Below, piece by piece: positions 18 to 13,203 of a stretch of DNA of 25,921 bases (its first letter is position 1; the number at the start of each line of letters is the position of its first letter). Under the pieces are notes generated by a model, which had not been told where the DNA came from, made no database searches, and worked only from the letters and a program-made list of their open reading frames with translations. The position numbers and the translations under genes are program-made. Source of the stretch: Gammaproteobacteria bacterium (GTDB taxonomy: Bacteria; Pseudomonadota; Gammaproteobacteria; UBA9339); the NCBI GenBank assembly GCA_030631035.1, contig DAOVLX010000001.1:1-25921 (forward strand), in the 5' to 3' direction.

Positions 18-1043
18 ATGAGAAAAGAAATGAACAAAATCGAAAAAATCGAATTTCAGCTTACAAATTCTTGTAATATGAATTGTAGCTTTTGTTTTGG
101 TGGCCATATTAATCGTAATGTGGAAATGTCTCCAGAAATTATTTGTAGAGTGATAAAAGAAACTGTGGAACAGAATAATATAGGACATCCACTATTAAAT
201 TTAAAGAATGTTTGGCTGACTGGGGGTGAGCCACTTTTAGTGGAAAAATCTGTTATAAAGATAATTAGAGAATGTAAATTGTTAGGGATTGATGTTGGAC
301 TAAGTACAAATGCCTTACTATTGAACGAGCATTTGGATGCATTGCTTGATGCTGGTCTTAAGGAGATTAGAATATCCATGGATTCAGTAGACAAGCATAT
401 ATTTGAGAAGGTCAGAGGAAAAAAAGATTCATTTGAGCCTGTAATGCGAAATATAGTGTTGTCTGTAAATGCTGGGCTAAAAACAGTAATTAGAATAACT
501 GTTACCAATGATAATGTGGATGCTATTGAAAACATTGTGGAGTCTCTTGCTAACGTTGGGGTTTCGAAAATTGAATTAAAAGGAGTAATTCCCATTGGGC
601 GTGCGGACTTTAACATGATGCCCAAGTATCGTAAGCTGGAAGAAGCTTTCAAAAAAGGTATTAATATAGTAAATGGCCATCCGGGTGATGTAAAGATTGG
701 CATAATGTGCAATTATTTGCCACGATGCAAAGGGTATTCTGTTGCAAATAACACAGCATGTGTTTGCGGTTATTCTGCTATTTATGTATCAGCTAATGGG
801 GCAATTACTCCTTGCAGCTATTTTCCTAGCGAAAGTAATTATAATATATACAAGAATACCATTACGGAGGCATGGGAGAGCCCGCTTTTTAATAGCATTA
901 GGAAAGATGTTCCAGGGAAGTGTATGAAATGTGATGATTGGGAGCATTGTCGAAATGGGTGTCCGGCTATATTATATAGTGGTAACGCAATAGGGAAATC
1001 ATGTTTTGATTTTATAAATGAAACTAATGATAATTTAATATAA
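18..1043 (+). CDS. Radical SAM enzyme with C-terminal SPASM domain (PqqE/NirJ-like superfamily; substrate unknown)
   Basis: CxxxCxxC motif CNMNCSFC, GGEPLL motif, and SPASM cysteines CVCGYSAIYVSANGAITPC ... CMKCDDWEHCRNGCPA. The true start could be ATG at 30. Confidence 0.92.
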   Translation: MRKEMNKIEKIEFQLTNSCNMNCSFCFGGHINRNVEMSPEIICRVIKETVEQNNIGHPLLNLKNVWLTGGEPLLVEKSVIKIIRECKLLGIDVGLSTNALLLNEHLDALLDAGLKEIRISMDSVDKHIFEKVRGKKDSFEPVMRNIVLSVNAGLKTVIRITVTNDNVDAIENIVESLANVGVSKIELKGVIPIGRADFNMMPKYRKLEEAFKKGINIVNGHPGDVKIGIMCNYLPRCKGYSVANNTACVCGYSAIYVSANGAITPCSYFPSESNYNIYKNTITEAWESPLFNSIRKDVPGKCMKCDDWEHCRNGCPAILYSGNAIGKSCFDFINETNDNLI

Positions 1044-1056
1044 AGGAAATTATGTT

Positions 1057-1845
1057 ATGTATACATATTTTGAAGGCCGAGCATCAGCATACGAAAAATA
1101 TAGGCCAAAATTGCCAGATAATTTCTTTAGATTTTTATCTGATAAACTTCGATTAACTGAAGCCGAAAAATGTAATCGATATATGGATATTGGATGTGGT
1201 ACAGGCCAATTAACAATTCCTCTTAGTAGGTATTTTAATGAAGCAGTAGGCATTGATCCTGCTTTTGATATGGTGCAAGAAGCAAAAAAAGTAGCAAAAA
1301 AGAGTAATTGTGAATCTATTAAATGGGTACAGGGGTATGCAGAAGATATTTCAATAGAAGATTATAAAAATTTTAATTTGGTTACGATAGCAAATGCGTT
1401 TCATTGGATGGATCAACCAATAGTTATTTCAAAAATACTTCGCTTGCTTGATTCTCAAGGTTATTTAGTGCTTGTTCGCTCTTATGCAGATATTACTTCA
1501 AATGCTTCTGATTGGCAGAAAGCTTTGAATGATATTCTTGAATCGTGGGTTGGGGAAGAAAGGAAGGCTACAGTTGGGAGTAAATATGAGCAAATTAATT
1601 GGGTTGAAATGTTAAACGCATTCCCATTTTCTTCTGTGTTGACTCATGAAATTCCGGAAACAAGGATTTGGAGTATTGAGGATCTGTTAGGTTTTTATTT
1701 TACAGTATCATTCTGTTCGGAAGAAAAATTAGGTGAATACGTTGAGGATTACAAAAAAAATGTAGAAAAGACACTACTCAAGATTCATCCTGACAATAAA
1801 TTTGTGCAAAAGCATAATATAACATTAATTATTGCCAAAAAATGA
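1057..1845 (+). CDS. Class I SAM-dependent methyltransferase
   Basis: SAM-binding motif I MDIGCGTGQLT, acidic motif GIDPA, post-II VTIANAFHWMD, N-terminal YEKYRP; AAGGA RBS at 1043-1047. Confidence 0.92.
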   Translation: MYTYFEGRASAYEKYRPKLPDNFFRFLSDKLRLTEAEKCNRYMDIGCGTGQLTIPLSRYFNEAVGIDPAFDMVQEAKKVAKKSNCESIKWVQGYAEDISIEDYKNFNLVTIANAFHWMDQPIVISKILRLLDSQGYLVLVRSYADITSNASDWQKALNDILESWVGEERKATVGSKYEQINWVEMLNAFPFSSVLTHEIPETRIWSIEDLLGFYFTVSFCSEEKLGEYVEDYKKNVEKTLLKIHPDNKFVQKHNITLIIAKK

Positions 1846-2936
1846 AATATAAAAAGATTTTCTTGAATATCTGTTTGCTGGTTATAATTTTTGTTTGTCA
1901 GACTGCTAATGCTAAGCAGTTTATTCTTACTGCTATTTACTCTCCTGATAAACAGCTTCATAGCTGCATGAATGTTTTACAGTCTGTAATTAATCAAGCT
2001 AACAATAATGGACTAAATATTAAGCTTGTTAAATTGATAAATAAAGATGATTCTTCAATAGGAGCATTACAGTTAGCTAAAGAAGCAAAAAATATCCATT
2101 CGGATGCCGTTATTGGCGGTGGTAGTTCGGAACAGATGCTATTAGAGTCAAGGGTATTGAATAGTGCTGATATACCCGTATTTGTACTCACTGCTGAACA
2201 TCCAGACATTTCTGTAGATAAGCCATATGTGGTTACATTGTTGCCGAGTTTAAAAGTATTTTGTAACTCTGCAGCAAATAGGATTATGAATATTTCACCT
2301 AAAGCAAAAAAAATATTAATTGTTAGAAATATATCGATGCAGTATGCAATATACGTTTCTGATGCTGTCACCAAAATTACTAAAAAAGAAAGACCAAATA
2401 CAAAAATTGAATACATTAACATCATTAATGGTTATGGGTTTATTAATAGTTTAGCGGAAAAAATAAAACAAAATCGGCCTGATATGGTATATTTGCCAAT
2501 ATATAATAAACAGATAGCAAGCCTTTTGATCGAATTAACTAAACAGCATCCATTTCCTATCGATATTTTTATTAACGCTGGCCCATCAGTGATAAATGAA
2601 ATGAAATATTATCGTTTAATCTTAAGAGATCACCCTGAAATAAAACTCCATATATTCACGGTTTGGTCAGGAAAGCCCTCTGGCAAATATTCGTTACTAT
2701 ATAAAAGTTTACTTAATAAAAATGAAAGTGCAAGTGATTTAAAAGTGGCTCTTACATTTGATGCGGTAGAATTGCTTATAAATGCGCTCAAAGAAAATTC
2801 TAGTATTCGGGGCATGAATCTGGTTTATTTGGTTAAATTAGAAAAATTTCCCGGAGTAACGGGGGATATTTGGTTTGATAAATTCGGCAATACTGTCAAA
2901 AGAAAAAAGGACAGATTTTTTTATTATGTGATTTAA
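1842..2936 (+). CDS. Periplasmic solute-binding protein, LivJ/LIVBP-like (type 1 PBP fold), with no adjacent ABC permease
   Basis: Signal peptide ending TANA, AVIGGGSS segment, C-terminal FPGVTGDIWFDKFGN typical of the LivJ/K family; ATGA overlap with the methyltransferase stop. Confidence 0.8.
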   Translation: MKYKKIFLNICLLVIIFVCQTANAKQFILTAIYSPDKQLHSCMNVLQSVINQANNNGLNIKLVKLINKDDSSIGALQLAKEAKNIHSDAVIGGGSSEQMLLESRVLNSADIPVFVLTAEHPDISVDKPYVVTLLPSLKVFCNSAANRIMNISPKAKKILIVRNISMQYAIYVSDAVTKITKKERPNTKIEYINIINGYGFINSLAEKIKQNRPDMVYLPIYNKQIASLLIELTKQHPFPIDIFINAGPSVINEMKYYRLILRDHPEIKLHIFTVWSGKPSGKYSLLYKSLLNKNESASDLKVALTFDAVELLINALKENSSIRGMNLVYLVKLEKFPGVTGDIWFDKFGNTVKRKKDRFFYYVI

Positions 2937-2948
2937 AAAGGCTTATAT

Positions 2949-4964
2949 ATGAAATCAGATACAAATGGTATTAGTAAAATTAATCTGTATAAGATAATAT
3001 TATGGCCAGTAATTATTTTAGTGATGTCATTTCTGTTTGTATTTGCTATAGCCTCCCATTTTCATAGCATACATAGTGCAGAAAAATTGCAGCACGATCT
3101 CAAGCAGGCCCTGTTTGATGCAGAAAGTAGTTTTGCTGATGAGGTGGTTTTGCAGGAATATCCGGCAATTCAAATGAGGATTAATCGTATAATACTTGAT
3201 GTACAAACAAGGTATGAAGGCGCTAATATTTGCATTAGTTTGCAGCCAGAATATGCAAAGTCAAACCTTAATAAACCTATTACTCAATGTAGTGATAGGG
3301 CAGGCATAGATGATTTTTTACAATCTTCTAATAATTTTGTTAGGCAGATTAGGGTTTCAGGCGTAAATATCGCCAAGGTTGTTTATAGATCAAGTTTACA
3401 GGTAAATATATATAGCTTTTTTTCGCCAGAAGTAATGTTTGCAACTTTTGTGGCTATGTTTATTACTTTTGTTGCATTTTATTTTTTGATAAAAAACATC
3501 AGAAAAAACATCATCATGCCTTTTCAAGAAACTGTAGAATATAATGCAAAATCAGTAGCTTTTTCAGAATTAGCCGGACAGGTTGCGCACGATATACGTT
3601 CACCAGCTGCTGCTGTTTTAATGTTGGCTAAAGAATCTGTAGGATTGCCGGAAGAGCAGCGCCTATCTCTTAGAGATGCGGCTAATAGAATTCATAACAT
3701 AGCCAATCATTTGCTAAGTCAATATGGTGGCGATTCAAATGACGAAATTCGTGCTGGGAAAATATTAATTCCACCTTCAGTTCTGTCTGTTTTTACAGAA
3801 AAAAAGATGCAACACAAAGAGTTGCCAGTATCTTTTTTATGCAATATTGCTGAATCAGCTAGCTTCGCTTATGTTAATATTAATAAAACTGATTTTGAAA
3901 GAATGATCTCCAATTTGATAAGTAATGCTTTTGAGGCGTTAATTTTTAATCAGGGAGAAGTTGAAGTCCGATTATTTATAGAGCCTGGAGTTAATAATGT
4001 AGTTATTCAAATTATAGACAATGGTAGGGGGATGTCGCAAGAATTTATTGATGAATTTCTTAATAAGGATAAAGTAATAAGTCAAAAACAAAATGGGCAC
4101 GGGTTAGGGCTGACATACACCAAGTCAGTGTTGAAAGAAAGCACAGGAGTACTTGATGTCTTTTCGCAAATAAATCAAGGAACTACTATAGAATTAAGAT
4201 TTAAAGCAGAAGAGCCGCCCATTTGGATTGCAACAGAGATCAATTTTCGATCAGATGATATTATAATTATTCTTGATGATGATTGCTCAGTTCATGGGGC
4301 ATGGGATCGCAGATTTCAAACTATTCTTGCTACTCATAAAAATAGTAAAATTTTGCATTTTAATACTGCTGAAGAATGTCTCGTGCAGATTCAATCTTTT
4401 TCTCAATCTGATAAAAGCCGAGTATTATTGTTGGCTGATTATGAGCTAATCAATCAAGATAAAAATGGATTAGATGTAATTGAACTAATTGATATAAATC
4501 GCTCTTTTTTAGTGACTAGTCATTATGAAAATATGGAAGTTATTAAAAGAGCTATTTTGTGTAATGCATATGTGTTGCCAAAAATTTTGGCTTCTGATGT
4601 TAAATTGATTTTAAATGAAGAGAATAGCTTCGATGAAAATAAAGATTTTGATTTAATTATTGTTGATGACGCTAAAGAATTTTCTGAGGTAATATCGTAT
4701 TTATTTTCTTCAAAAGATAAGAAACTGCGAGTCTATCACAATCCTTATGAGTTGCTTAGTAGCTTGCTTAGTTGTGACAAGCAAATTAAAATATGTTTTG
4801 ACTATGACTTGGAATGTCCAGTGAATGGTGTTGAACTTGCAGAAGTACTATGGAGAAAAGGATATAATAACTTATATTTAGCAACAGGTTACCAAACTCA
4901 GAAAATGAAATTACCAGCGTATTTAAGAGTATTGAATAATAAAATGGACCTGCTTAATCTTTAG
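2949..4964 (+). CDS. Membrane-bound hybrid sensor histidine kinase with two C-terminal receiver domains
   Basis: Two hydrophobic TM segments flanking a ~125-aa periplasmic domain; H-box VAHDIRSP, N-box MISNLISNA, G1 IIDNGRGM, G2 GHGLGL; REC1 (ILDDD...LADYEL...LVTS...PK) and REC2 (IVDDA...CFDYDL...LATG...NK). Confidence 0.92.
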   Translation: MKSDTNGISKINLYKIILWPVIILVMSFLFVFAIASHFHSIHSAEKLQHDLKQALFDAESSFADEVVLQEYPAIQMRINRIILDVQTRYEGANICISLQPEYAKSNLNKPITQCSDRAGIDDFLQSSNNFVRQIRVSGVNIAKVVYRSSLQVNIYSFFSPEVMFATFVAMFITFVAFYFLIKNIRKNIIMPFQETVEYNAKSVAFSELAGQVAHDIRSPAAAVLMLAKESVGLPEEQRLSLRDAANRIHNIANHLLSQYGGDSNDEIRAGKILIPPSVLSVFTEKKMQHKELPVSFLCNIAESASFAYVNINKTDFERMISNLISNAFEALIFNQGEVEVRLFIEPGVNNVVIQIIDNGRGMSQEFIDEFLNKDKVISQKQNGHGLGLTYTKSVLKESTGVLDVFSQINQGTTIELRFKAEEPPIWIATEINFRSDDIIIILDDDCSVHGAWDRRFQTILATHKNSKILHFNTAEECLVQIQSFSQSDKSRVLLLADYELINQDKNGLDVIELIDINRSFLVTSHYENMEVIKRAILCNAYVLPKILASDVKLILNEENSFDENKDFDLIIVDDAKEFSEVISYLFSSKDKKLRVYHNPYELLSSLLSCDKQIKICFDYDLECPVNGVELAEVLWRKGYNNLYLATGYQTQKMKLPAYLRVLNNKMDLLNL

Positions 4965-5208
4965 TAATTCCGGCTATATCAGCTTCATTATTTAATTTTT
5001 CTACATATTCTCTAATTAATCTAGCAGACAATGCCATTTTCTCAGAAGCTTCTGAACATTCTTCCAAATGTTTTTTCGCATTTTTATCGTCGAAATTTGC
5101 ATGCGGGTTAATGGCATTCAATAATTGCGAGATAATAGAGCTTAATTCCGTTATTGCATTGGATAACGGTAACAAGTCATGAGCTATCTTTTTGATGTTT
5201 TTAACCAT
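4954..5208 (-). CDS. Small helical hypothetical protein (84 aa), HisKA/DHp-like
   Basis: Strong RBS GAGGA 7 nt upstream of the ATG; 19 nt downstream of the repressor stop; contains KKIAHDLLPL followed by two predicted helices. The gene is well supported; the function is inference. Confidence 0.7.
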   Translation of the reverse strand: MVKNIKKIAHDLLPLSNAITELSSIISQLLNAINPHANFDDKNAKKHLEECSEASEKMALSARLIREYVEKLNNEADIAGITKD

Positions 5209-5227: not shown

Positions 5228-5884
5228 TCAATAAGAAACCTTTTTTACACATTCTCTATATGCTCCTAGCATGACATCTCCATCTCTTAGTGATAACTTA
5301 CAGGGTGTGGTATCAAGAGACACAAGCACTATGTCTATTTTTTCGATGTGGAATCCATATTTTAATGTAATATTATTAGTTTTAGCCAGATATACTAACA
5401 ATATTTCTCCATCTTTAAAAGTTTCTGTTTGTTCAAAGGTTACAATATCTTTTACTTCAAATTTTGGTGAAAATTCAGTTCCTGTAATATAAATAGCTAT
5501 AGCTTTTTTGGGGTAAGGGGTGGTTGTTAGGATAAAATTGTTAGTGGTTAGCGTATCTTCTTTGTTGGTGGAGTAATAAAGTTTTAATTGGTCTAGATAG
5601 TAGACTGGTATTTTATACGTTTTTACTGTAGTATTTTCTTCATGAATTTCTCCTTTTCCCGTTGCAAGCCATTCTTCATTCACATTTAAGTGTTCGGCTA
5701 TTCTTTTTACATGTTTAGATGATTTAGTGTCGCTATTTAAAAGATAGTGCATGCCAGATGGTGACAAACCAAGTTTGTTCGCCATGTGCGATTGTTTTAC
5801 CCCTAGGGTATCAAGGACGTATCTTAATCTTTTTGATATGTTGTTTAGTTTCCTAATATCATCTGCATTTTCTTGGGTTGCCAT
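5228..5884 (-). CDS. Phage CI/XRE-type repressor with degenerate S24 domain (LvrR-like position)
   Basis: N-terminal Cro/CI HTH (RLRYVLDTLGVKQSHMANKLGLSPSGMHYLL...LNVNEEWLATGKGE); C-terminal S24-like fold with GTEF in place of GDSM; divergent from the LvrA-like and csrA genes. Confidence 0.85.
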   Translation of the reverse strand: MATQENADDIRKLNNISKRLRYVLDTLGVKQSHMANKLGLSPSGMHYLLNSDTKSSKHVKRIAEHLNVNEEWLATGKGEIHEENTTVKTYKIPVYYLDQLKLYYSTNKEDTLTTNNFILTTTPYPKKAIAIYITGTEFSPKFEVKDIVTFEQTETFKDGEILLVYLAKTNNITLKYGFHIEKIDIVLVSLDTTPCKLSLRDGDVMLGAYRECVKKVSY

Positions 5885-6630: not shown

Positions 6631-7785
6631 ATGACCATGCCTACTTGCATCAATAATCCTGGCAGCGAGCTTCTATTGGTATTACGTCGATGGCAAGTAG
6701 ATATCTGTGATAACAACAAGTGCGCGGCAGCTGTTTTGTCATTTTTAATCTACTTTCATGATGTAAAAAGAGAAATGATCAGGAAGAATAAACAGGCAAA
6801 CGATTTGGCTGAATTACACGGGGATGAGCGCACCCAGGATGAGACCATTTATCAGTTTCACACCATAGAAGAGATCACTGAGCGCATTTTAGGATTATAT
6901 GGTAGGACAGCCATCAATGAGGGAATTAAGCTGCTCGAGAAGAAGGAAATCATATCTATCCACAGAAATCCCAATCCAAAATATAGCTTTGATAAAACCA
7001 GATACTTTTTATTGCATCCTGCTGTGTGTAACGAGTGGCTAGAAGAAAAATACAATAAAAACAATAGGTTCCAAAAGCGGCACATCGATGAGCCGGAAAA
7101 CGGTCATCGATCAACCGGAAATAGCACATCGATGAACCGGAAAACGGTTATCGATGAACCAGAAGTAGCAGATCGACAACCGCAAACCTGCGCACCGTCA
7201 ACCGGAAATAGTACAGCTATAACAAAGAATACATACAAAGAACAGATAGATAAAAAAATAGGCTCTGATAATAATTTTTCTGTGGATAACTCGGACGAAG
7301 CTACAGAAGCTTCTCCTGAGGTCAGAGCGGTTATCGATTATCTTGTTGAACATGGTATGCCTAGAAAGTTATTGACTCGTACAGATGATATATGCGCGAT
7401 TCAGACGATTTTAAAAGCAGGGGCAACACAGACAGATTTTGCTAATGCATTAGTCAAAGCGTATGTGGCTAAGGGAGAGGAAAAATTTGGGCTTTATTAT
7501 TTGCTTAAAATTATCAGTAATTTCTTAGAAGAGAGGAAACGTAGGCAAATATCGAAGCAGAAGCGGCGTGAGCTTCCTGAGGAGCATAGTGGTTCATTAT
7601 CAGTTAAAGATACTGTTCAACGCCCTAAGTTAGAAGATTTTACAGGTCGCACGCAAGAGCGCCCAAAAGTAGATCAGGCAACGATAGATGCATCATTGCG
7701 GGATATCAAATCAATTTTACAGAAAACCATAAAAAATAATTACGGAGGAAAAGATGATGTTGATTTTAACAAGAAGAGCAGGTGA
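6631..7785 (+). CDS. lvrA: LvrA-like winged-helix protein; probable phage-type replication initiator
   Basis: AGGAGG RBS; N-terminal domain ([21 protein letters not shown]...[16 protein letters not shown]) resembles Legionella vir-region LvrA as recalled; lies between a divergent repressor and csrA as in lvr modules; internal iteron-like repeats. Confidence 0.7.
7084..7214. repeat. Six degenerate 22-bp tandem repeats (iteron-like), consensus ATCGATgAACCGGAAA(A/T)(C/A)G...
   Basis: ATCGAT at 7084, 7106, 7128, 7150 and ATCGAC at 7172 (exact 22-bp spacing); sixth degenerate copy at ~7193 (TCAACCGGAAATAG). Confidence 0.9.
7281..7289 (-). promoter_or_regulatory. Perfect DnaA box (TTATCCACA on the minus strand)
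   Basis: TGTGGATAA at 7281-7289, just after an A-rich strip following the 22-bp repeats; a one-mismatch box CTATCCACA lies at 6956-6964. Confidence 0.6.
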
Positions 7786-7969
7786 GACTGTCATGATTGG
7801 CAATAATGCTGAAATCACAGTAACAGTTTTGGGTATTAGAGGTAATCAGGTGCGTTTAGGAGTGCATGCACCAGCTGAGATTCCTGTGCATCGGGAGGAG
7901 ATATACGAACGTATCCAAACAGAGAACAACACAAACGGTAGAAAATATAAATTTGAAGATGATGAATAA
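7754..7969 (+). CDS. csrA: CsrA/RsmA family RNA-binding translational regulator (element-borne paralog, LvrC-like)
   Basis: [15 protein letters not shown]...VRLGVHAP...[11 protein letters not shown]; GGAGG RBS; start at 7754 or 7757; overlaps the upstream gene by ~30 nt. Confidence 0.97.
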
Positions 7970-8168
7970 TACCCAGAGAAATAAATCTAGTTGTGATTTA
8001 AGAGAAATTTATTTTGCTCTTAGACATGGGCGGTTGTGTGGCGCTGTTAGTGGAATATTAACAGCGTTGTGCAACTTTGTTCCACATAACTGCGTTGAGG
8101 GAAACTGCAGCTATTCTATGGCGCCATATTTCTCAAGAGGTATTTGGTTTTATGCTATTAACAATTAA
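7959..8168 (+). CDS. Possible small Cys-rich hypothetical protein (69 aa)
   Basis: The ATG overlaps the csrA 3' end and the stop lies just before the traT RBS, so the ORF fills the gap exactly; no recognisable family and a weak RBS. Confidence 0.3.
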
Positions 8169-8181
8169 AAAGGGGAAAAAC

Positions 8182-8928
8182 GTGAAATTTTTAATCAAAC
8201 CAATAATCAAGCTAGTACTAATAAGTACATTACTGTCATTAATGGGCTGTGCGGCGGTTAACACTGCGGTAAGCAAACACGATTTAGATGTACAAACTAA
8301 AATGAGCGCATCAATATTTTTGGATCCAGTAGCTCCTAGTCAAAAGGTGGCTTATGTTGGAGTTCATAACACCTCTGGTCAGTCATTGGATGTCACCTCA
8401 GCAATTAAGTCAGATATAGAGGCAGAAGGGTATCGAATAACAGATGACCCCACTAAGGCCCATTATTTGCTGCAGGTTAACGTATTAAGGATAGGGAAGG
8501 CAGATAAGAGGGATTCCTCTAAATCTTTAGCACATGGCTATGGTGGGGCTATAACTGGTATGGCAATAGGCACAGGAACTGCAATAGCAGCAGGAGGAGA
8601 CACTGATACAGCTATAGCTGGAGGCCTTATTGGCGGTGCAGCAGGAAGTATTGCTGATGCTTTAGTTAAGGACCAAGTCTATACCATGGTTACTGATGTT
8701 CAGATATCAGAGCGTGCAGCCAAGGGACAGAAATTGCATAAGCATTCAACTTCAGTATTAAAGCAGGGTACTAGTGGTCAAGAGGTAATAACTGGAGGAG
8801 GTGATGCCCAGTGGATGCGATATAGAACCCGGGTAGTAAGCACAGCAGAGAAGGTAAATTTGAAGTTTGCTGATGCAAAACCTGTGTTAGAAAAAGAGCT
8901 GGCAAAATCAATCGCAGGTATTTTGTAA
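8182..8928 (+). CDS. traT: TraT-family surface exclusion/complement resistance lipoprotein
   Basis: GTG start after an AGGGG RBS (the track's 8077 start is probably too long); lipobox LMGC, then AAVNTAVSKHDLDVQTKMSASIFLDPV, a glycine-zipper region and RYRTRVVSTAEKVNLKF. Confidence 0.9.
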   Translation: MKFLIKPIIKLVLISTLLSLMGCAAVNTAVSKHDLDVQTKMSASIFLDPVAPSQKVAYVGVHNTSGQSLDVTSAIKSDIEAEGYRITDDPTKAHYLLQVNVLRIGKADKRDSSKSLAHGYGGAITGMAIGTGTAIAAGGDTDTAIAGGLIGGAAGSIADALVKDQVYTMVTDVQISERAAKGQKLHKHSTSVLKQGTSGQEVITGGGDAQWMRYRTRVVSTAEKVNLKFADAKPVLEKELAKSIAGIL

Positions 8929-8984
8929 ATGAGGGAAGATCAATCAATCCAGTTTTTTCCATTTTCACAAGCTAGAGTGAAGAT

Positions 8985-9419
8985 ATGAAGGCAAAGCAGA
9001 TGATATACATGTGGTGGTTTTTGTTATTGTTGTTGCCTGTGTTAGTTTTTGGTGCTGATGTTAGGGTAGGGCGTTATTTAAGTACAACCAGTGCCCCAAA
9101 GGCATCGCAGCAAAACCCACTAGAGCAGATATTTTCTTTAACCTTTCCGAATTCAATTAACACTATTGGTCAGGCCATGGATTATATTTTAAACAATACT
9201 AGCTATAAGTTAATGCCTAACGAATATCGTAGCGAAGATATAGCATCGTTGTTGGGTCAGCAATTACCACTTTCAGATAGACAGATAGGGCCTATTAGTG
9301 TTGATCAGGCTTTGCATGTATTAGCTGGCAGCTCTTATCAGATGCTGATTGATCCTAAACATCGTTATATCTCATTTATTCTAAAACCGACATTTAACAA
9401 TTTATATCCTATCAGGTAA
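8985..9419 (+). CDS. pilL: PilL-like ICE protein (PFGI-1 class)
   Basis: Signal peptide; RVGRYL...QQNPLEQI...TIGQAMDYILNNTSYKL...RQIGPISVDQALHVLAG pattern. Confidence 0.8.
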   Translation: MKAKQMIYMWWFLLLLLPVLVFGADVRVGRYLSTTSAPKASQQNPLEQIFSLTFPNSINTIGQAMDYILNNTSYKLMPNEYRSEDIASLLGQQLPLSDRQIGPISVDQALHVLAGSSYQMLIDPKHRYISFILKPTFNNLYPIR

Positions 9420-9425
9420 CGCACT

Positions 9426-10322
9426 ATGGAAAATAATCAGATACAAGAAACACAAGAAATAGAAAAAGACAAAAAACCGTCAAAATTAAAGCTAGCTGTT
9501 ACTTTTGTTAAAGCTTGGTTTAATAGGATTTGGAGTTTTTCCAAAAGAGTCGTTAGAAGAATTATGACGCAAATTTGGGGTTTTTGTAAAAAACGACCTA
9601 TTTATAGCGGTATTATCATAACAATTGTGATTCTAGCTGTTGTTCTATGTTGTTTATTTGTTCCCATTTTTCATGGACGGAATGACTTACACAATACCTT
9701 ATGGGATAGCGCCAGTGTGACTAATAAACAGGATGTTGCGTCGTTAAAAATTGCAAAAGAGATGCAGCAAAAAGAACATAATCAACAGTTGACTAAAGAG
9801 CTAGAACAGAAACTTAATGCAATTCAGCAAGAGGTTAATCAGTCTCATCAACTATCAACCCAGAGTGTAGAGCAGCTGGAGCAACAGATTACAGCCTTGA
9901 CGCAAGATATAGCTGATATCAAGCAAAATGCGAAGGAGGCAAAGGATAGTGCCAGGCAAAGCGTTCAAACAACACAGCAGCATTATCACGAGTCTAAAAA
10001 ACAGGTAGCAAAGGTTGTTTCTCAATTACAAGAGATCCACAAACAGCTTGAGCCCCAGAGATATTTACCACCAAGTATTTTGCCATTTGAAGTTGTTGGG
10101 TTGGATTTTTGGAATGGAAAAGCAATGATCACTGTTGCAGTTAAAGATGTTACAGGATCTGTGCATTATCGCTTGATGGGGCAGGGTATGCAGTTTGCCT
10201 GTCATAGTGTTAAGTTGAAAGATCCTGGTTGCACTAGTTGGTGGCTAGATAAAATTTCTCCAGACTCAAGCACAATTATTTTTAAGAACTCAACCGGTAA
10301 AAAAGTAAGAGTAGAGCTCTAA
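9426..10322 (+). CDS. ICE membrane-anchored coiled-coil protein (conserved gene after pilL)
   Basis: One TM segment, a long Gln/Glu-rich coiled coil, C-terminal LPFEVVGLDFWNG beta-domain; position after pilL. Confidence 0.7.
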   Translation: MENNQIQETQEIEKDKKPSKLKLAVTFVKAWFNRIWSFSKRVVRRIMTQIWGFCKKRPIYSGIIITIVILAVVLCCLFVPIFHGRNDLHNTLWDSASVTNKQDVASLKIAKEMQQKEHNQQLTKELEQKLNAIQQEVNQSHQLSTQSVEQLEQQITALTQDIADIKQNAKEAKDSARQSVQTTQQHYHESKKQVAKVVSQLQEIHKQLEPQRYLPPSILPFEVVGLDFWNGKAMITVAVKDVTGSVHYRLMGQGMQFACHSVKLKDPGCTSWWLDKISPDSSTIIFKNSTGKKVRVEL

Positions 10323-10558
10323 TGATAGATAAAATCAAGAGAACAATAGGTTTTGCAATGATGTTGTTACTGACAACTGCTGTTACGGGTTGTGCCTCAA
10401 TAAAGAAGTCTCATACAGAATTTACAGCATTACAGCTTGCCTGTGTCAGCTCTCCAGTTTTATATACCAATTTACAGAAACCTGAATTACAGAGGGTTTA
10501 TTTGCTGTCAAATGGGAATGATTGCACTCAGTTTTACAGGGCGGATTATTATGTATAA
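10322..10558 (+). CDS. Small lipoprotein, hypothetical
   Basis: Lipobox VTGC after a signal peptide; start and stop overlap both neighbours. Confidence 0.7.
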   Translation: MIDKIKRTIGFAMMLLLTTAVTGCASIKKSHTEFTALQLACVSSPVLYTNLQKPELQRVYLLSNGNDCTQFYRADYYV

Positions 10559-11366
10559 AAGGTTGGCACCACTTATAGTATTGATTTTTATCTGTTCTGG
10601 CTGTTTTGCATCTGAAAAAGAAGACGTACAAAAGACAGAGTATACCAAGATGCCTTTGTTAAATGTGATAGGAGGCAATAAAAAAGACGATTTTACTCAG
10701 TTTCAGAATTTAACTGCAAAACAGAAGCACACTATGGCAAAGGAGTGGGGACTTAGTCCAGAGCAATATACCAAATATCTCTATTATATAAATTATACTC
10801 CAGATGCTACAACAGTTGATAAAAATACTACTAGTCCATTATTAGTTTTAGCGATGCATGCTCAAAATAAAGCTCAATATGATGGTTATATAAAACAAGC
10901 TGTTATTATCGAACATAATGAGATGGCACGTTTTTTGCAGGTGCAGCATGATTTTACCAAAATGGTGCATCAGCTTTATCCAAAGCAATATCCGATAACG
11001 GCATCATGGATGAAAACCAGTGAACTACAAGCTGGAGATGTAGTACAGCTTTTTTGTAATACCCATAATCAGACTTGTAGTAATGTATTAGGCGCTATTT
11101 TGCCGAAAATTCGTAAAGTATCTGGTGCCAGAATTGATATATTTGCAGTTAATAAGCCAACTGCTACACAAATAGTAGAATTTGGTAAAAAGAATAAGAT
11201 CAGCAAGAAAGAGGTGCAGAGTAAGAAAGTTACCCTAAATTTTGGGGATAAGGCGTTTAATTTATTAGAAGGAGAGACCCATAAAAAATTGTCATTACCA
11301 TTTATTGTAGTAAGACGTAATGGTAAGGAGGTAGCAGTTAATTTAGGGGATAGACATGGCGCCTAA
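10551..11366 (+). CDS. ICE protein, TIGR03759 (PFL_4693)-like
   Basis: Start reassigned to ATG 10551 (signal peptide MYKRLAPLIVLIFICSGCFA); AKEWGLSPEQYTKY...PLLVLAM...QLYP pattern. Confidence 0.75.
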   Translation: MYKRLAPLIVLIFICSGCFASEKEDVQKTEYTKMPLLNVIGGNKKDDFTQFQNLTAKQKHTMAKEWGLSPEQYTKYLYYINYTPDATTVDKNTTSPLLVLAMHAQNKAQYDGYIKQAVIIEHNEMARFLQVQHDFTKMVHQLYPKQYPITASWMKTSELQAGDVVQLFCNTHNQTCSNVLGAILPKIRKVSGARIDIFAVNKPTATQIVEFGKKNKISKKEVQSKKVTLNFGDKAFNLLEGETHKKLSLPFIVVRRNGKEVAVNLGDRHGA

Positions 11367-11853
11367 TATAGCAACTATCACCTGTTTACTTGTTGTTAGT
11401 GGCCCTGTTTTTGCTTTTACTAAAATTATAGCAACTGTGGGTCCAACTACCGACATAAAACCATATATGCAAGTAATTCAAGGTAGTCAGTCACAACGAT
11501 CCAAAAGTTTGGATCCTAAAAAATCATATAGATTTAGTTATAAGACAGACTCCAAAGAGTTAACACCTGGCATAGTAAAAACTCGGAAAATCAATAATCC
11601 AATGCTAAAAGAACCAATTTTTATAGTTGGAGACGATGATCTTTCTATGAAATGGCTGGATAAATATGCGAGTAAACTAAAAACAATCAAGGCGATTGGA
11701 GTCATTGTAAATATAAAAGATAGTAATGATTATCATAAGATTACTAATAAATATGGCCTTCCTCTATTATCTGTCAACGGTGATGGTATAGCCAAAAGTC
11801 TTGGTATTAGGCATTACCCGGTATTAATTGGCCAGCATGTAATTGAGCAATGA
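11356..11853 (+). CDS. ICE protein, TIGR03765 (PFL_4695)-like
   Basis: PIFIVGDDDLSMKWL...GVIVNI...GDGIAKSLGIRHYPVLI...IEQ pattern. Confidence 0.85.
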   Translation: MAPNIATITCLLVVSGPVFAFTKIIATVGPTTDIKPYMQVIQGSQSQRSKSLDPKKSYRFSYKTDSKELTPGIVKTRKINNPMLKEPIFIVGDDDLSMKWLDKYASKLKTIKAIGVIVNIKDSNDYHKITNKYGLPLLSVNGDGIAKSLGIRHYPVLIGQHVIEQ

Positions 11854-12179
11854 AGATGAAATTTATAAAGAAGACCATACTAATTTTATTAATCGGAGTA
11901 AGCATGAATGCATTTGCTGATCCTTTTCAAGAGAATATTGAATTAGCACAAATCAGTAATGTATTAAATGCGGTTTATCCTCTTATTGCTGAGGCAGAAA
12001 AGGAAGCTGATCCTAATGCCAGAGTTAAGTTTCACTATGATTGGCTGCAACAGGATATTCAGGGTATACAAAGTGGAATAGCGCAAAAGATTAATGCAGC
12101 CAAGATTGAACCAAGAGTAGTTAAACCGCTGAAATCTTCTTTTATTACTCAACAGAATGTTAATAGGGGAGGAGAGTAA
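11850..12179 (+). CDS. RAQPRD-family ICE protein (TIGR01690-like)
   Basis: Signal peptide; VKFHYDWLQQDIQGIQSGIAQKINAAKIEPR corresponds to the family C-terminal motif. Confidence 0.8.
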   Translation: MKMKFIKKTILILLIGVSMNAFADPFQENIELAQISNVLNAVYPLIAEAEKEADPNARVKFHYDWLQQDIQGIQSGIAQKINAAKIEPRVVKPLKSSFITQQNVNRGGE

Positions 12180-12415
12180 TGTCGCTATCTGCTTTTGAAG
12201 ATGGTTCAGGACTTAGTGCTGTTTGGTTTAATCATTGGGTAGTTGGGCTAACTGGAACGCTGGTCATTGTTACTGCAGCAGCTTTAGTGACGCTTTTGGC
12301 GCATCGCTTAGAGATTGTAGAGGACGCAAGTCGTATGTGGATAGTTGGCTATATTCTGTTTGTAATCATGATGGTGTTTGTTTTTCTTGGGTTTTTAAAT
12401 AATTTTTGGAGATGA
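12179..12415 (+). CDS. Small ICE membrane protein, TIGR03758-like
   Basis: AFEDGSGLS N-terminus, two TM helices, position after the RAQPRD gene. Confidence 0.7.
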   Translation: MSLSAFEDGSGLSAVWFNHWVVGLTGTLVIVTAAALVTLLAHRLEIVEDASRMWIVGYILFVIMMVFVFLGFLNNFWR

Positions 12416-12861: not shown

Positions 12862-13203
12862 ATGACAAAAAAGATATCAGGTAATTCTAAAGTAGTTAAT
12901 ATAGGAAAAACTCTTGATTTGATTATGAGTGGCCCTAATTACAGACAGAAAATAGCTTGTTTTTTAGGCGATAATTTTCCAGGAGTATATTTTACCCCAA
13001 GAGAAGCAGCCTGCATGATGCGATTACTTCAAGGGAAGAGTATGCGTGGTATCGCTGAGGAACTAAATTTATCACCTAGGACAGTAGAGTTTTATACTGA
13101 AAATATGAGAGGAAAATTGAGTTGCAAGTCAAAATTTGAATTAATAGATTTTGTTAAAAAAAGTGATTTTTTGCAGAATTACAAATCTAAGGATACAGAT
13201 TAG
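12862..13203 (+). CDS. LuxR/GerE-type HTH transcriptional regulator without a receiver domain
   Basis: FTPREAACMMRLLQGKSMRGIAEELNLSPRTVEFYTENMRGKLSCKSKFELI; AGAGGGG RBS. Confidence 0.92.
   Translation: MTKKISGNSKVVNIGKTLDLIMSGPNYRQKIACFLGDNFPGVYFTPREAACMMRLLQGKSMRGIAEELNLSPRTVEFYTENMRGKLSCKSKFELIDFVKKSDFLQNYKSKDTD

Follow-up and report, generated by a model that had tools for sequence, protein, structure and literature searches.

What are a radical S-adenosylmethionine (SAM) enzyme, a methyltransferase, a secreted periplasmic binding protein and a sensor kinase doing directly against the repressor operon of a conjugative element? The question is raised by contig DAOVLX010000001.1 of a gammaproteobacterial assembly (GCA_030631035.1), of which we analyzed positions 1 to 25,921, referred to below as the window. 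The stretch carries an integrative and conjugative element (ICE), and a first-pass annotation had suggested that the four genes form a synthesis and sensing operon for a new autoinducer-like signal that may gate conjugation. Our analysis points to five genes rather than four, and suggests that this operon and the neighboring operon of the repressor and an 84-amino acid protein (p84) may form a single signaling cassette, modular and autoinducer-like, that gates the ICE switch. The support for this reading comes from comparative genomics, and we put its probability at about 0.48.

The evidence that carries it begins with a trio of genes consisting of the kinase core, p84 and the repressor. We found the three together in seven independent loci, namely the window and six from other uncultured bacteria (L013, L016, which is the same place as L012, L017, L019, L021 and L030), covering at least two orders and two gene arrangements. 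A search of genome and metagenome collections led by the repressor returned p84 and a convergent kinase with the domain order DHp-CA-REC-REC at every locus with enough flanking sequence, while a search led by the kinase recovered the trio for P0025, P0038 and P0040. At the P0040 locus (L030), the repressor (33% identical), a 74-amino acid p84 homolog (hhalign probability 97%) and the kinase all point in the same direction, with gaps of 9 and 19 nt, and probably form a single operon. Because the trio is conserved in seven loci, and once in what appears to be one operon, the comparison of gene order makes a functional tie between the kinase and the repressor operon well supported. The trio itself is scattered: within the order of the window we found it in 1 of 22 genomes, within that of genome G288 in 1 of 14, and among 400 sampled Gammaproteobacteria in 2 further genomes, one of these two being a remnant. 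This patchy distribution fits a mobile module. As far as our literature search found, no one has described a dual-receiver kinase combined with a tiny histidine protein and a non-cleavable CI-type repressor.

The genes that precede the kinase differ from one trio locus to the next (Table 1). In five of the seven loci, small-molecule enzymes lie directly 5' of the kinase and in the same direction, and exporters are present in four of these five. For example, the set in L013 (L013:479-10562, on a Legionellales-like metagenome contig) also includes a tautomerase and directly precedes a kinase with nine transmembrane (TM) segments. We take these genes to be the toolkit of gamma-butyrolactone synthesis, by comparison with A-factor biosynthesis, and the locus resembles a signal pathway of the gamma-butyrolactone type in which a histidine kinase is the receptor. 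Among the sister loci, AfsA is present in L013 and L030 only. The lipid-like sets of L013 and L019 go with sensors of 8-10 TM segments that are related to each other, and the window and L016 pair secreted proteins with sensors of two TM segments. Enzyme set and sensor type thus vary together on a constant chassis, which is the pattern of diversifying signal-receptor systems, and this covariation would be the best indirect support for the idea that a signal is synthesized.

Judged by its neighbors in other genomes, the binding protein is one half of a conserved sensor pair, the other half being the periplasmic domain of the kinase, and the two appear to have been inherited together in three loci. 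In L023 and L024, the two closest relatives of the binding protein with readable genomic context, homologs of it (37-39% identity) adjoin kinases whose periplasmic domain is 34-38% identical to that of the window kinase (E 1e-27 to 1e-31). It is this adjacency of homologous partners that argues for a real pair, as the first-pass annotation had supposed, and the co-inheritance of binding protein and periplasmic domain that marks a binding protein-dependent sensor kinase is seen in the window, L023 and L024. Both relatives come without the window's enzymes. Each belongs to a cluster (L023:1596-11191 and L024:180-3411) of a canonical regulator with helix-turn-helix (HTH) and S24 domains, a 310-amino acid receiver protein, the binding protein and the kinase. 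L023 further holds a PatB C-S lyase and a methyltransferase, and a homocysteine S-methyltransferase follows the kinase in L016; these neighbors may hint at a theme of sulfur or methyl amino acids. An lqs-like reading of L023 was rejected, since its aminotransferase is the PatB C-S lyase.

The nature of the binding protein bears on what might be sensed. It matches Pfam ANF_receptor (E 7e-9) and, weakly, Peripla_BP_6, and has a signal peptide with likely cleavage after the residues ANA (22-24). A full HMMER search returned 176 relatives, the closest at 43% identity. A fold predicted from the single sequence was unusable (predicted local distance difference test (pLDDT) score 37), and we used an alignment-based model instead (pLDDT 92.9). 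The top Foldseek matches of this model are LivJ and LivK (TM-score 0.71-0.76; 4gnr, 3td9), and the family profile matches 3td9 with an E value of 5e-70; with its two-lobe type-1 fold and signal peptide, the protein belongs to the LivJ/HAAT group. In comparison with Escherichia coli LivJ, it retains equivalents of the carboxylate-binding residues Ser79 and Tyr202 and of the pocket residue Tyr150, whereas the ammonium-binding Thr102 has become Glu119 and Glu226 has become Ala. The full set of LivJ residues for an alpha-amino acid (Ser79, Thr102, Tyr202 and Glu226), together with a cognate LivHMGF transporter, is therefore not found here, and we detected no LivH or LivM in the metagenome-assembled genome (94.8% complete). 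A carboxylate site that is kept and an ammonium site that is changed fit a ligand that is amino acid-like but non-standard.

The kinase is of the GHKL class and matches Pfam HATPase_c at 6e-16. A TM scan places its membrane segments at about residues 8-35 and about 163-181, on either side of a periplasmic domain of some 125 amino acids; the DHp and CA domains and two receivers follow. The alignment places the H-box histidine at His214 (codon 3588-3590) and contains the H, N, G1 and G2 boxes. Both receivers fall below the Pfam cut-off yet retain all hallmark residues, which are invariant or nearly so in the family alignment: the first has the acidic pocket D443-445, Asp497 (codon 4437-4439), T523/S524 and K545, and the second has D574, Asp618 (codon 4800-4802) and K665. 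On these residues the catalytic core and both receivers are intact. The cassette lacks a response regulator that carries an output domain. Genes for receiver-less HTH proteins of the GerE/LuxR type lie near the trio in three loci (window 12862-13203, L016:7201-7440 and L030:2875-3135), and such a protein together with the fused receivers of the kinase could be a split NarL-type regulator. In some relatives of the kinase (P0088, P0091 and P0074), the PAS-DHp-CA-REC-REC core is preceded in the same polypeptide by an ATP-grasp, methyltransferase or GNAT domain; these enzyme-like domains may be sensor modules. We discarded a Rosetta-stone argument built on P0088 and P0091, as their ATP-grasp and methyltransferase domains resemble the window enzymes at the fold level only.

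Between kinase and repressor, the candidate link is p84. Its gene lies 19 nt downstream of the repressor gene on the same strand, and the protein is 48-68% identical across the seven loci, with the motif His10-Asp11-Leu12-x-Pro14 kept in all eight sequences. It has no Pfam assignment; a profile search of the PDB gave only a weak match to LemA, and a search of the Atlas gave nothing above 0.76. A predicted complex of two p84 chains with kinase residues 425-671 scored 0.00, with the partner poorly folded, and so speaks neither for binding nor against it. In G300, a truncated remnant of p84 (L029:9747-9911) occurs close to an Hcp-like gene.

The repressor matches HTH_19, Phage_CI_repr and, near the Pfam cut-off, Peptidase_S24, and is 55-62% identical in six loci, with L030 more distant as given above. 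In the window, the nucleophile serine of the S24 domain (G/D-x-S-M) is replaced by Glu, and across the repressor family this position reads E/H/N/Q/N/S/N. The canonical S24 neighbors in L023, L024 and L030 carry D-x-S-M. The protein thus does not have the nucleophile of the self-cleaving S24 repressors LexA and CI. A repressor without this serine is unlikely to respond to RecA, and therefore needs another input.

We then considered how far the sensing operon extends. The spacing of its four plus-strand genes (gaps of 13, -4 and 12 nt) is as first annotated, and it does end against the repressor operon: the kinase gene, with its stop at 4964, shares 11 nt (4954-4964) with the 3' end of the convergent p84 gene. 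The overlap is exactly 11 nt in two further loci (L017:1898-1908 and L021:3409-3419). No terminator was found there, and any transcript that reads through from the sensing operon would be antisense to that of p84 and the repressor. At the other end, base 1 of the window is the first base of its contig, and the operon had been suspected to start farther upstream. An otherwise identical ENA scaffold of 29,347 bp (L003) adds 1,964 bases, among them a gene for an ATP-grasp ligase that ends 68 nt ahead of the radical SAM gene; 5' of the ligase there are only transposase fragments of the IS3 type, and then the scaffold ends. The fragments (L003:226-428) derive from OrfA of an IS3-family insertion sequence, and insertion sequence activity may have brought in or shortened the operon. 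Where a precursor peptide had been sought, this ligase was found instead: no precursor-like small open reading frame (ORF) occurs in the 68-nt gap, between the genes or in the 650 bases upstream. Given the spacing and the upstream ligase on L003, the operon probably comprises five genes, for the ligase, the radical SAM/SPASM enzyme, the methyltransferase, the binding protein and the kinase. Scans for promoters and terminators gave counts equal to those in shuffled sequence, and co-transcription is argued from gene spacing.

The enzymes point to a small molecule. The radical SAM enzyme matches Pfam Radical_SAM (8e-24) and SPASM (1e-6); its translation shows the CX3CX2C motif at C19, C23 and C26, the SPASM motif CX2CX5CX3C at C302-x2-C305-x5-C311-x3-C315, and in addition C251-x15-C267 with Gx4C. 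With both the cluster motif and the C-terminal SPASM cysteines present, it is a member of the radical SAM/SPASM group, in a rare family with 21 database matches, of which the best is from Sporomusa (53% identity). Both its gene and p84 are absent from the 21 other genomes that belong to the same family or order as the window. The methyltransferase matches Methyltransf_11 (4e-17), _25 and _31 (E 1e-16 to 1e-17). None of the four operon proteins of the window reached an NCBIfam equivalog cut-off, and partial matches to PapB, SkfB and other maturase models (60-100 bits) are far below theirs. The ATP-grasp protein scores 354.9 bits against the full-length family model NF005543 (cut-off 302) and 219 bits against the DdaF model, below the equivalog cut-off, with a weak LAL_C2 match; it is probably an L-amino acid ligase like the dapdiamide synthase DdaF. 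With a ligase present and no precursor ORF, the enzymes suggest a small molecule and not a ribosomal peptide. PADLOC offered just generic viperin and methyltransferase fold matches, and a defense-system reading was dropped.

Relatives of the radical SAM gene in other bacteria point in the same direction. In four unrelated genomes (L004:6612-16603, L006:6419-9754, L008:3615-10557 and L010:6434-9727) the gene lies beside a truncated paralog of threonyl-tRNA synthetase (ThrRS); in L006 and L010 it is also accompanied by genes for NikR and a TrmO/TsaA-like protein, and L004, L006 and L008 have metal-type transporters nearby. The adjacency indicates that the usual partner of this radical SAM enzyme is an ATP-dependent, amino acid-activating enzyme. 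In the window the ligase fills that role, which fits an amino acid-derived product and at the same time raises the possibility of a metallophore, to which we return below. The cassettes themselves may represent an undescribed nickel-regulated pathway to an amino acid-derived compound; in the literature we found nothing on a pathway of NikR, radical SAM and ThrRS-like proteins. That the window's enzymes make the signal that is sensed is plausible but unproven.

Downstream of the repressor lies an ICE of the genomic island (GI) type, with TIGR03744 at 783 bits and TIGR03749, TIGR03755 and TIGR03765 above cut-off. The lvrA-like and csrA genes are divergent from the repressor gene and, with TraT, head the transfer cluster; the two are presumed to be the repressor's targets. 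The lvrRABC regulatory module of the type IV secretion system (T4SS) islands and plasmids of Legionella has the same layout (PMC3864950), and the element is by these features a Legionella-type GI-T4SS ICE with an lvr module. Our literature search found no description of a signal input into lvrR. In L019 (L019:1747-2589 and 7556-12308), the far side of the repressor has CsrA and then an Hcp gene of the type VI secretion system type in place of the T4SS genes.

Table 1. Positions of the cassette genes and first transfer genes, and genes upstream of the kinase in sister loci. Abbreviations not given in the text: HAD, haloacid dehalogenase; SDR, short-chain dehydrogenase/reductase; KAS, ketoacyl synthase; MFS, major facilitator superfamily; TPP, thiamine pyrophosphate.
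Feature	Position	Strand	Remarks
ATP-grasp L-amino acid ligase	L003:657-1913, off window		418 aa; operon gene 1; NF005543
Radical SAM/SPASM enzyme	18..1043	+	341 aa; operon gene 2; Pfam
Class I SAM-dependent methyltransferase	1057..1845	+	262 aa; Pfam
Secreted type-1 (LivJ/HAAT-fold) periplasmic binding protein	1842..2936	+	364 aa; Pfam, model, Foldseek
Hybrid histidine kinase	2949..4964	+	671 aa; Pfam, alignment, TM scan
p84, helical protein	4954..5208	-	84 aa; convergent with kinase; same operon as repressor by gene spacing
Repressor in LvrR position	5228..5884	-	218 aa; CI-type HTH and S24-like domain
LvrA-like gene and CsrA (LvrC-like)	6631..7969	+	first genes of ICE transfer region; CsrA by Pfam
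Upstream of kinase, L013		same strand	HAD phosphatase, AfsA, SDR, aldo-keto reductase, amine oxidase, EamA exporter
Upstream of kinase, L019		same strand	KAS II, HAD, MFS, split TPP enzyme
Upstream of kinase, L016		same strand	MFS, membrane protein, secreted protein with weak Peripla_BP_6 match
Upstream of kinase, L021		same strand	GNAT and unknown proteins
Upstream of kinase, L017		same strand	none

A related arrangement exists in cultured bacteria. Conjugative plasmids of the pLELO type, found in Legionella pneumophila, L. longbeachae and others, carry, divergent from lvrA-like, csrA, traT and F-type tra genes, a 216-amino acid protein, an alpha/beta hydrolase, a type-1 binding protein, a dual-receiver kinase of the same family and a 75-amino acid ORF, in that order. 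The binding protein matches the family of the window's protein with an hhalign probability of 97.7%, the kinase is 28% identical over 468 amino acids, and the 75-amino acid ORF has the motif KLKHDFLN. The cluster (L032, NC_018141.1 142912-148852) also includes a convergent 330-amino acid receiver protein. We considered the 75-amino acid ORF and the 216-amino acid protein as homologs of p84 and the repressor and rejected them, as no homology was detectable; only the layout and the kinase and binding protein families are common to the two.

If the cassette works as we propose, the three enzymes would build a small hydrophilic molecule derived from an amino acid, with the ligase forming an amide that the radical SAM enzyme alters and the methyltransferase then methylates. 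The product would reach the periplasm and be bound by the binding protein, which in its loaded form would dock on the kinase and alter both the autophosphorylation of His214 and the onward transfer of phosphate to Asp497 and Asp618. This relay would act on the p84/repressor pair, with p84 serving either as a phospho-acceptor through His10 or as an adaptor that binds the dead S24 domain, and repression of lvrA-csrA and the T4SS genes would thereby be relieved or reinforced. The kinase would in this way replace the SOS input, the repressor being unable to answer RecA. A broader form of the proposal would make this one member of a mobile, modular family of autoinducer systems in Legionellales-like bacteria, with exchangeable synthesis genes and matched sensors (either binding protein-dependent with two TM segments, or with 8-10 TM segments) on a constant chassis of kinase, p84 and dead-S24 repressor, in which a phosphorelay replaces RecA-driven autocleavage and here switches on ICE conjugation. 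We offer it tentatively and regard it as doubtful.

Other explanations of the locus have to be weighed against the proposed cassette. The binding protein and kinase might report an external cue to the repressor, such as a nutrient or an amino acid from the host or the environment, with the enzymes as unrelated cargo or as a regulated output. Such a circuit would suit a binding protein of the Leu/Ile/Val-binding family that keeps its carboxylate-binding residues and whose relatives accompany kinases without these enzymes; it would also suit an operon without an exporter, and the trio of L017, where no enzymes precede the kinase. It sits less well with the co-directional enzymes found directly 5' of the kinase in five of the seven trio loci (four with exporters), with a sensor type that shifts along with the enzyme set, and with the substitutions at the alpha-ammonium-binding positions of LivJ, and we consider it rather unlikely. 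Another view is that the neighborhood has no functional meaning, ordinary cargo having been dropped beside the ICE regulatory module by insertion sequence activity. IS3 fragments do flank the operon, and the cargo regions of ICEs are mosaic (PMC3864950). However, the trio is kept in seven loci, at least two orders and two gene arrangements, and its conservation makes chance proximity decidedly improbable.

The enzymes suggest two further alternatives. If they make a metallophore, the binding protein and kinase would report its metal-loaded form and the switch would answer metal supply. What recommends this is the company kept by relatives of the radical SAM enzyme, which lie in NikR-headed cassettes near FecCD/Peripla_BP_2, SBP_bac_5, ArsP and MFS transporters. 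However, the window lacks NikR, a metal transporter and a partner of the ThrRS-like or TrmO-like kind, its binding protein is of the amino acid type and not of the siderophore or nickel type, and our literature search found no such pathway described; we judge this explanation improbable. Highly improbable is the maturation, by the radical SAM/SPASM, ATP-grasp and methyltransferase enzymes, of a ribosomally synthesized and post-translationally modified peptide (RiPP) whose precursor gene was overlooked. RiPP pathways do include SPASM as well as ATP-grasp enzymes, and the partial matches to PapB, SkfB and other maturase models lean in that direction. Yet no maturase model reaches its cut-off, the 68-nt gap and the 650 bases upstream hold no plausible small ORF, the ATP-grasp enzyme is of the L-amino acid ligase/DdaF type, the radical SAM relatives pair with ThrRS paralogs and not with peptides, and the operon proteins include neither a protease nor, by Pfam, a PqqD-like domain.

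Several results weigh against the signaling cassette itself. As first annotated, the operon encodes neither a transporter or exporter nor a separate response regulator; the kinase has its own two fused receivers, and it is the missing exporter that counts against the cassette. The known autoinducer-synthase families (LuxI, LuxS, LqsA/CqsA and AfsA) are likewise absent from the window by Pfam and NCBIfam. The earlier idea of a signal synthase beside its receptor thus holds insofar as the sister loci fill the same slot with small-molecule pathways and exporters, AfsA included, but finds no known synthase family in the window. Nor does the exact enzyme set accompany the binding protein or the kinase at any other locus examined: of the expected co-occurrence of four genes, the sensor pair recurs (L023 and L024) and the enzymes do not. 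The repressor has no receiver domain, and by profile comparison p84 shows no recognizable likeness to a DHp or Hpt domain, its hhalign probability against the kinase DHp domain being 0.3% with the AHD motif alone matched. A comparison of the sequence upstream of the operon with that between the repressor and lvrA gave no more shared operator-like words than shuffled sequence did. The stretch was found in one DNA run, from a cold seep metagenome, and in no RNA run. Finally, the circuit had been tied to the ICE switch, and the trio in seven loci speaks for the tie, but T4SS genes are absent within the examined flanks of L016, L013 and L030. The conjugation link may be specific to the window and pLELO. 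Since the trio occurs without T4SS genes in three loci, the repressor would be the general output of the cassette, and control of an ICE one use of it.

Among known systems, the closest by analogy would be LuxPQ and TorTS for the input, and the conjugation switches of ICEBs1, Ti plasmids and pCF10 for the logic. LuxP/LuxQ (which senses autoinducer-2 in Vibrio) and TorT/TorS also set a secreted binding protein without a transporter beside a hybrid kinase with two TM segments, in a pair that is conserved across loci. The window, in contrast, combines a LivJ/HAAT-type binding protein with a kinase that has two receivers and no recognized Hpt domain or partner, and its conserved downstream partners are an 84-amino acid histidine protein and a CI-like repressor instead of LuxU/LuxO or TorR. 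As in ICEBs1 (Rap-Phr/ImmR/ImmA), Ti (TraI/TraR) and pCF10 (PrgX/cCF10), a self-made extracellular signal is proposed here to gate the transfer genes, by way of a repressor whose gene sits at the element's edge; the route proposed for the window differs in being a two-component phosphorelay onto a CI-type repressor, with no cytoplasmic peptide receptor, LuxR-type receptor or protease.

The comparison that had first been drawn was with Legionella lqsA/lqsS, and it stands for the layout and nothing beyond it. Like lqsA-lqsR-hdeD-lqsS and Vibrio cqsA/cqsS, the window clusters putative synthesis genes with a sensor kinase in a Legionellales-like bacterium, but it has no pyridoxal phosphate enzyme of the LqsA/CqsA type, the only aminotransferase near a relative of its binding protein being the PatB C-S lyase. 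LqsR is missing as well, and the window's kinase differs by its periplasmic domain and its fused receivers. In the lvrRABC module (PMC3864950), as in the window, the repressor gene diverges from the lvrA-like and csrA genes and lies ahead of a GI-type T4SS with traT; the window's repressor differs in having no S24 serine, an extra 84-amino acid gene in its operon and a kinase operon locked to it. The gamma-butyrolactone systems of Streptomyces resemble L013 and L030, which carry AfsA, and L013 adds a phosphatase, reductases and an exporter before the kinase. In these two loci a multi-TM histidine kinase would act as receptor in place of a TetR-family protein of the ArpA type, and the window itself has no AfsA.

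How islands and plasmids of the Legionella type decide on excision and transfer is not understood, even though the lvrR repressor itself is known. The pLELO-type plasmids of cultured Legionella share the layout described here, which opens the idea to work at the bench. If the proposed cassette is real, a non-cleavable CI-like repressor fed by a kinase would be a new wiring of a phage-type switch to chemical communication. The signal of the window would then be an amide that an amino acid ligase forms and that radical SAM and methyltransferase enzymes then modify, and the variable enzyme sets of the sister loci would point to several unknown signaling molecules.

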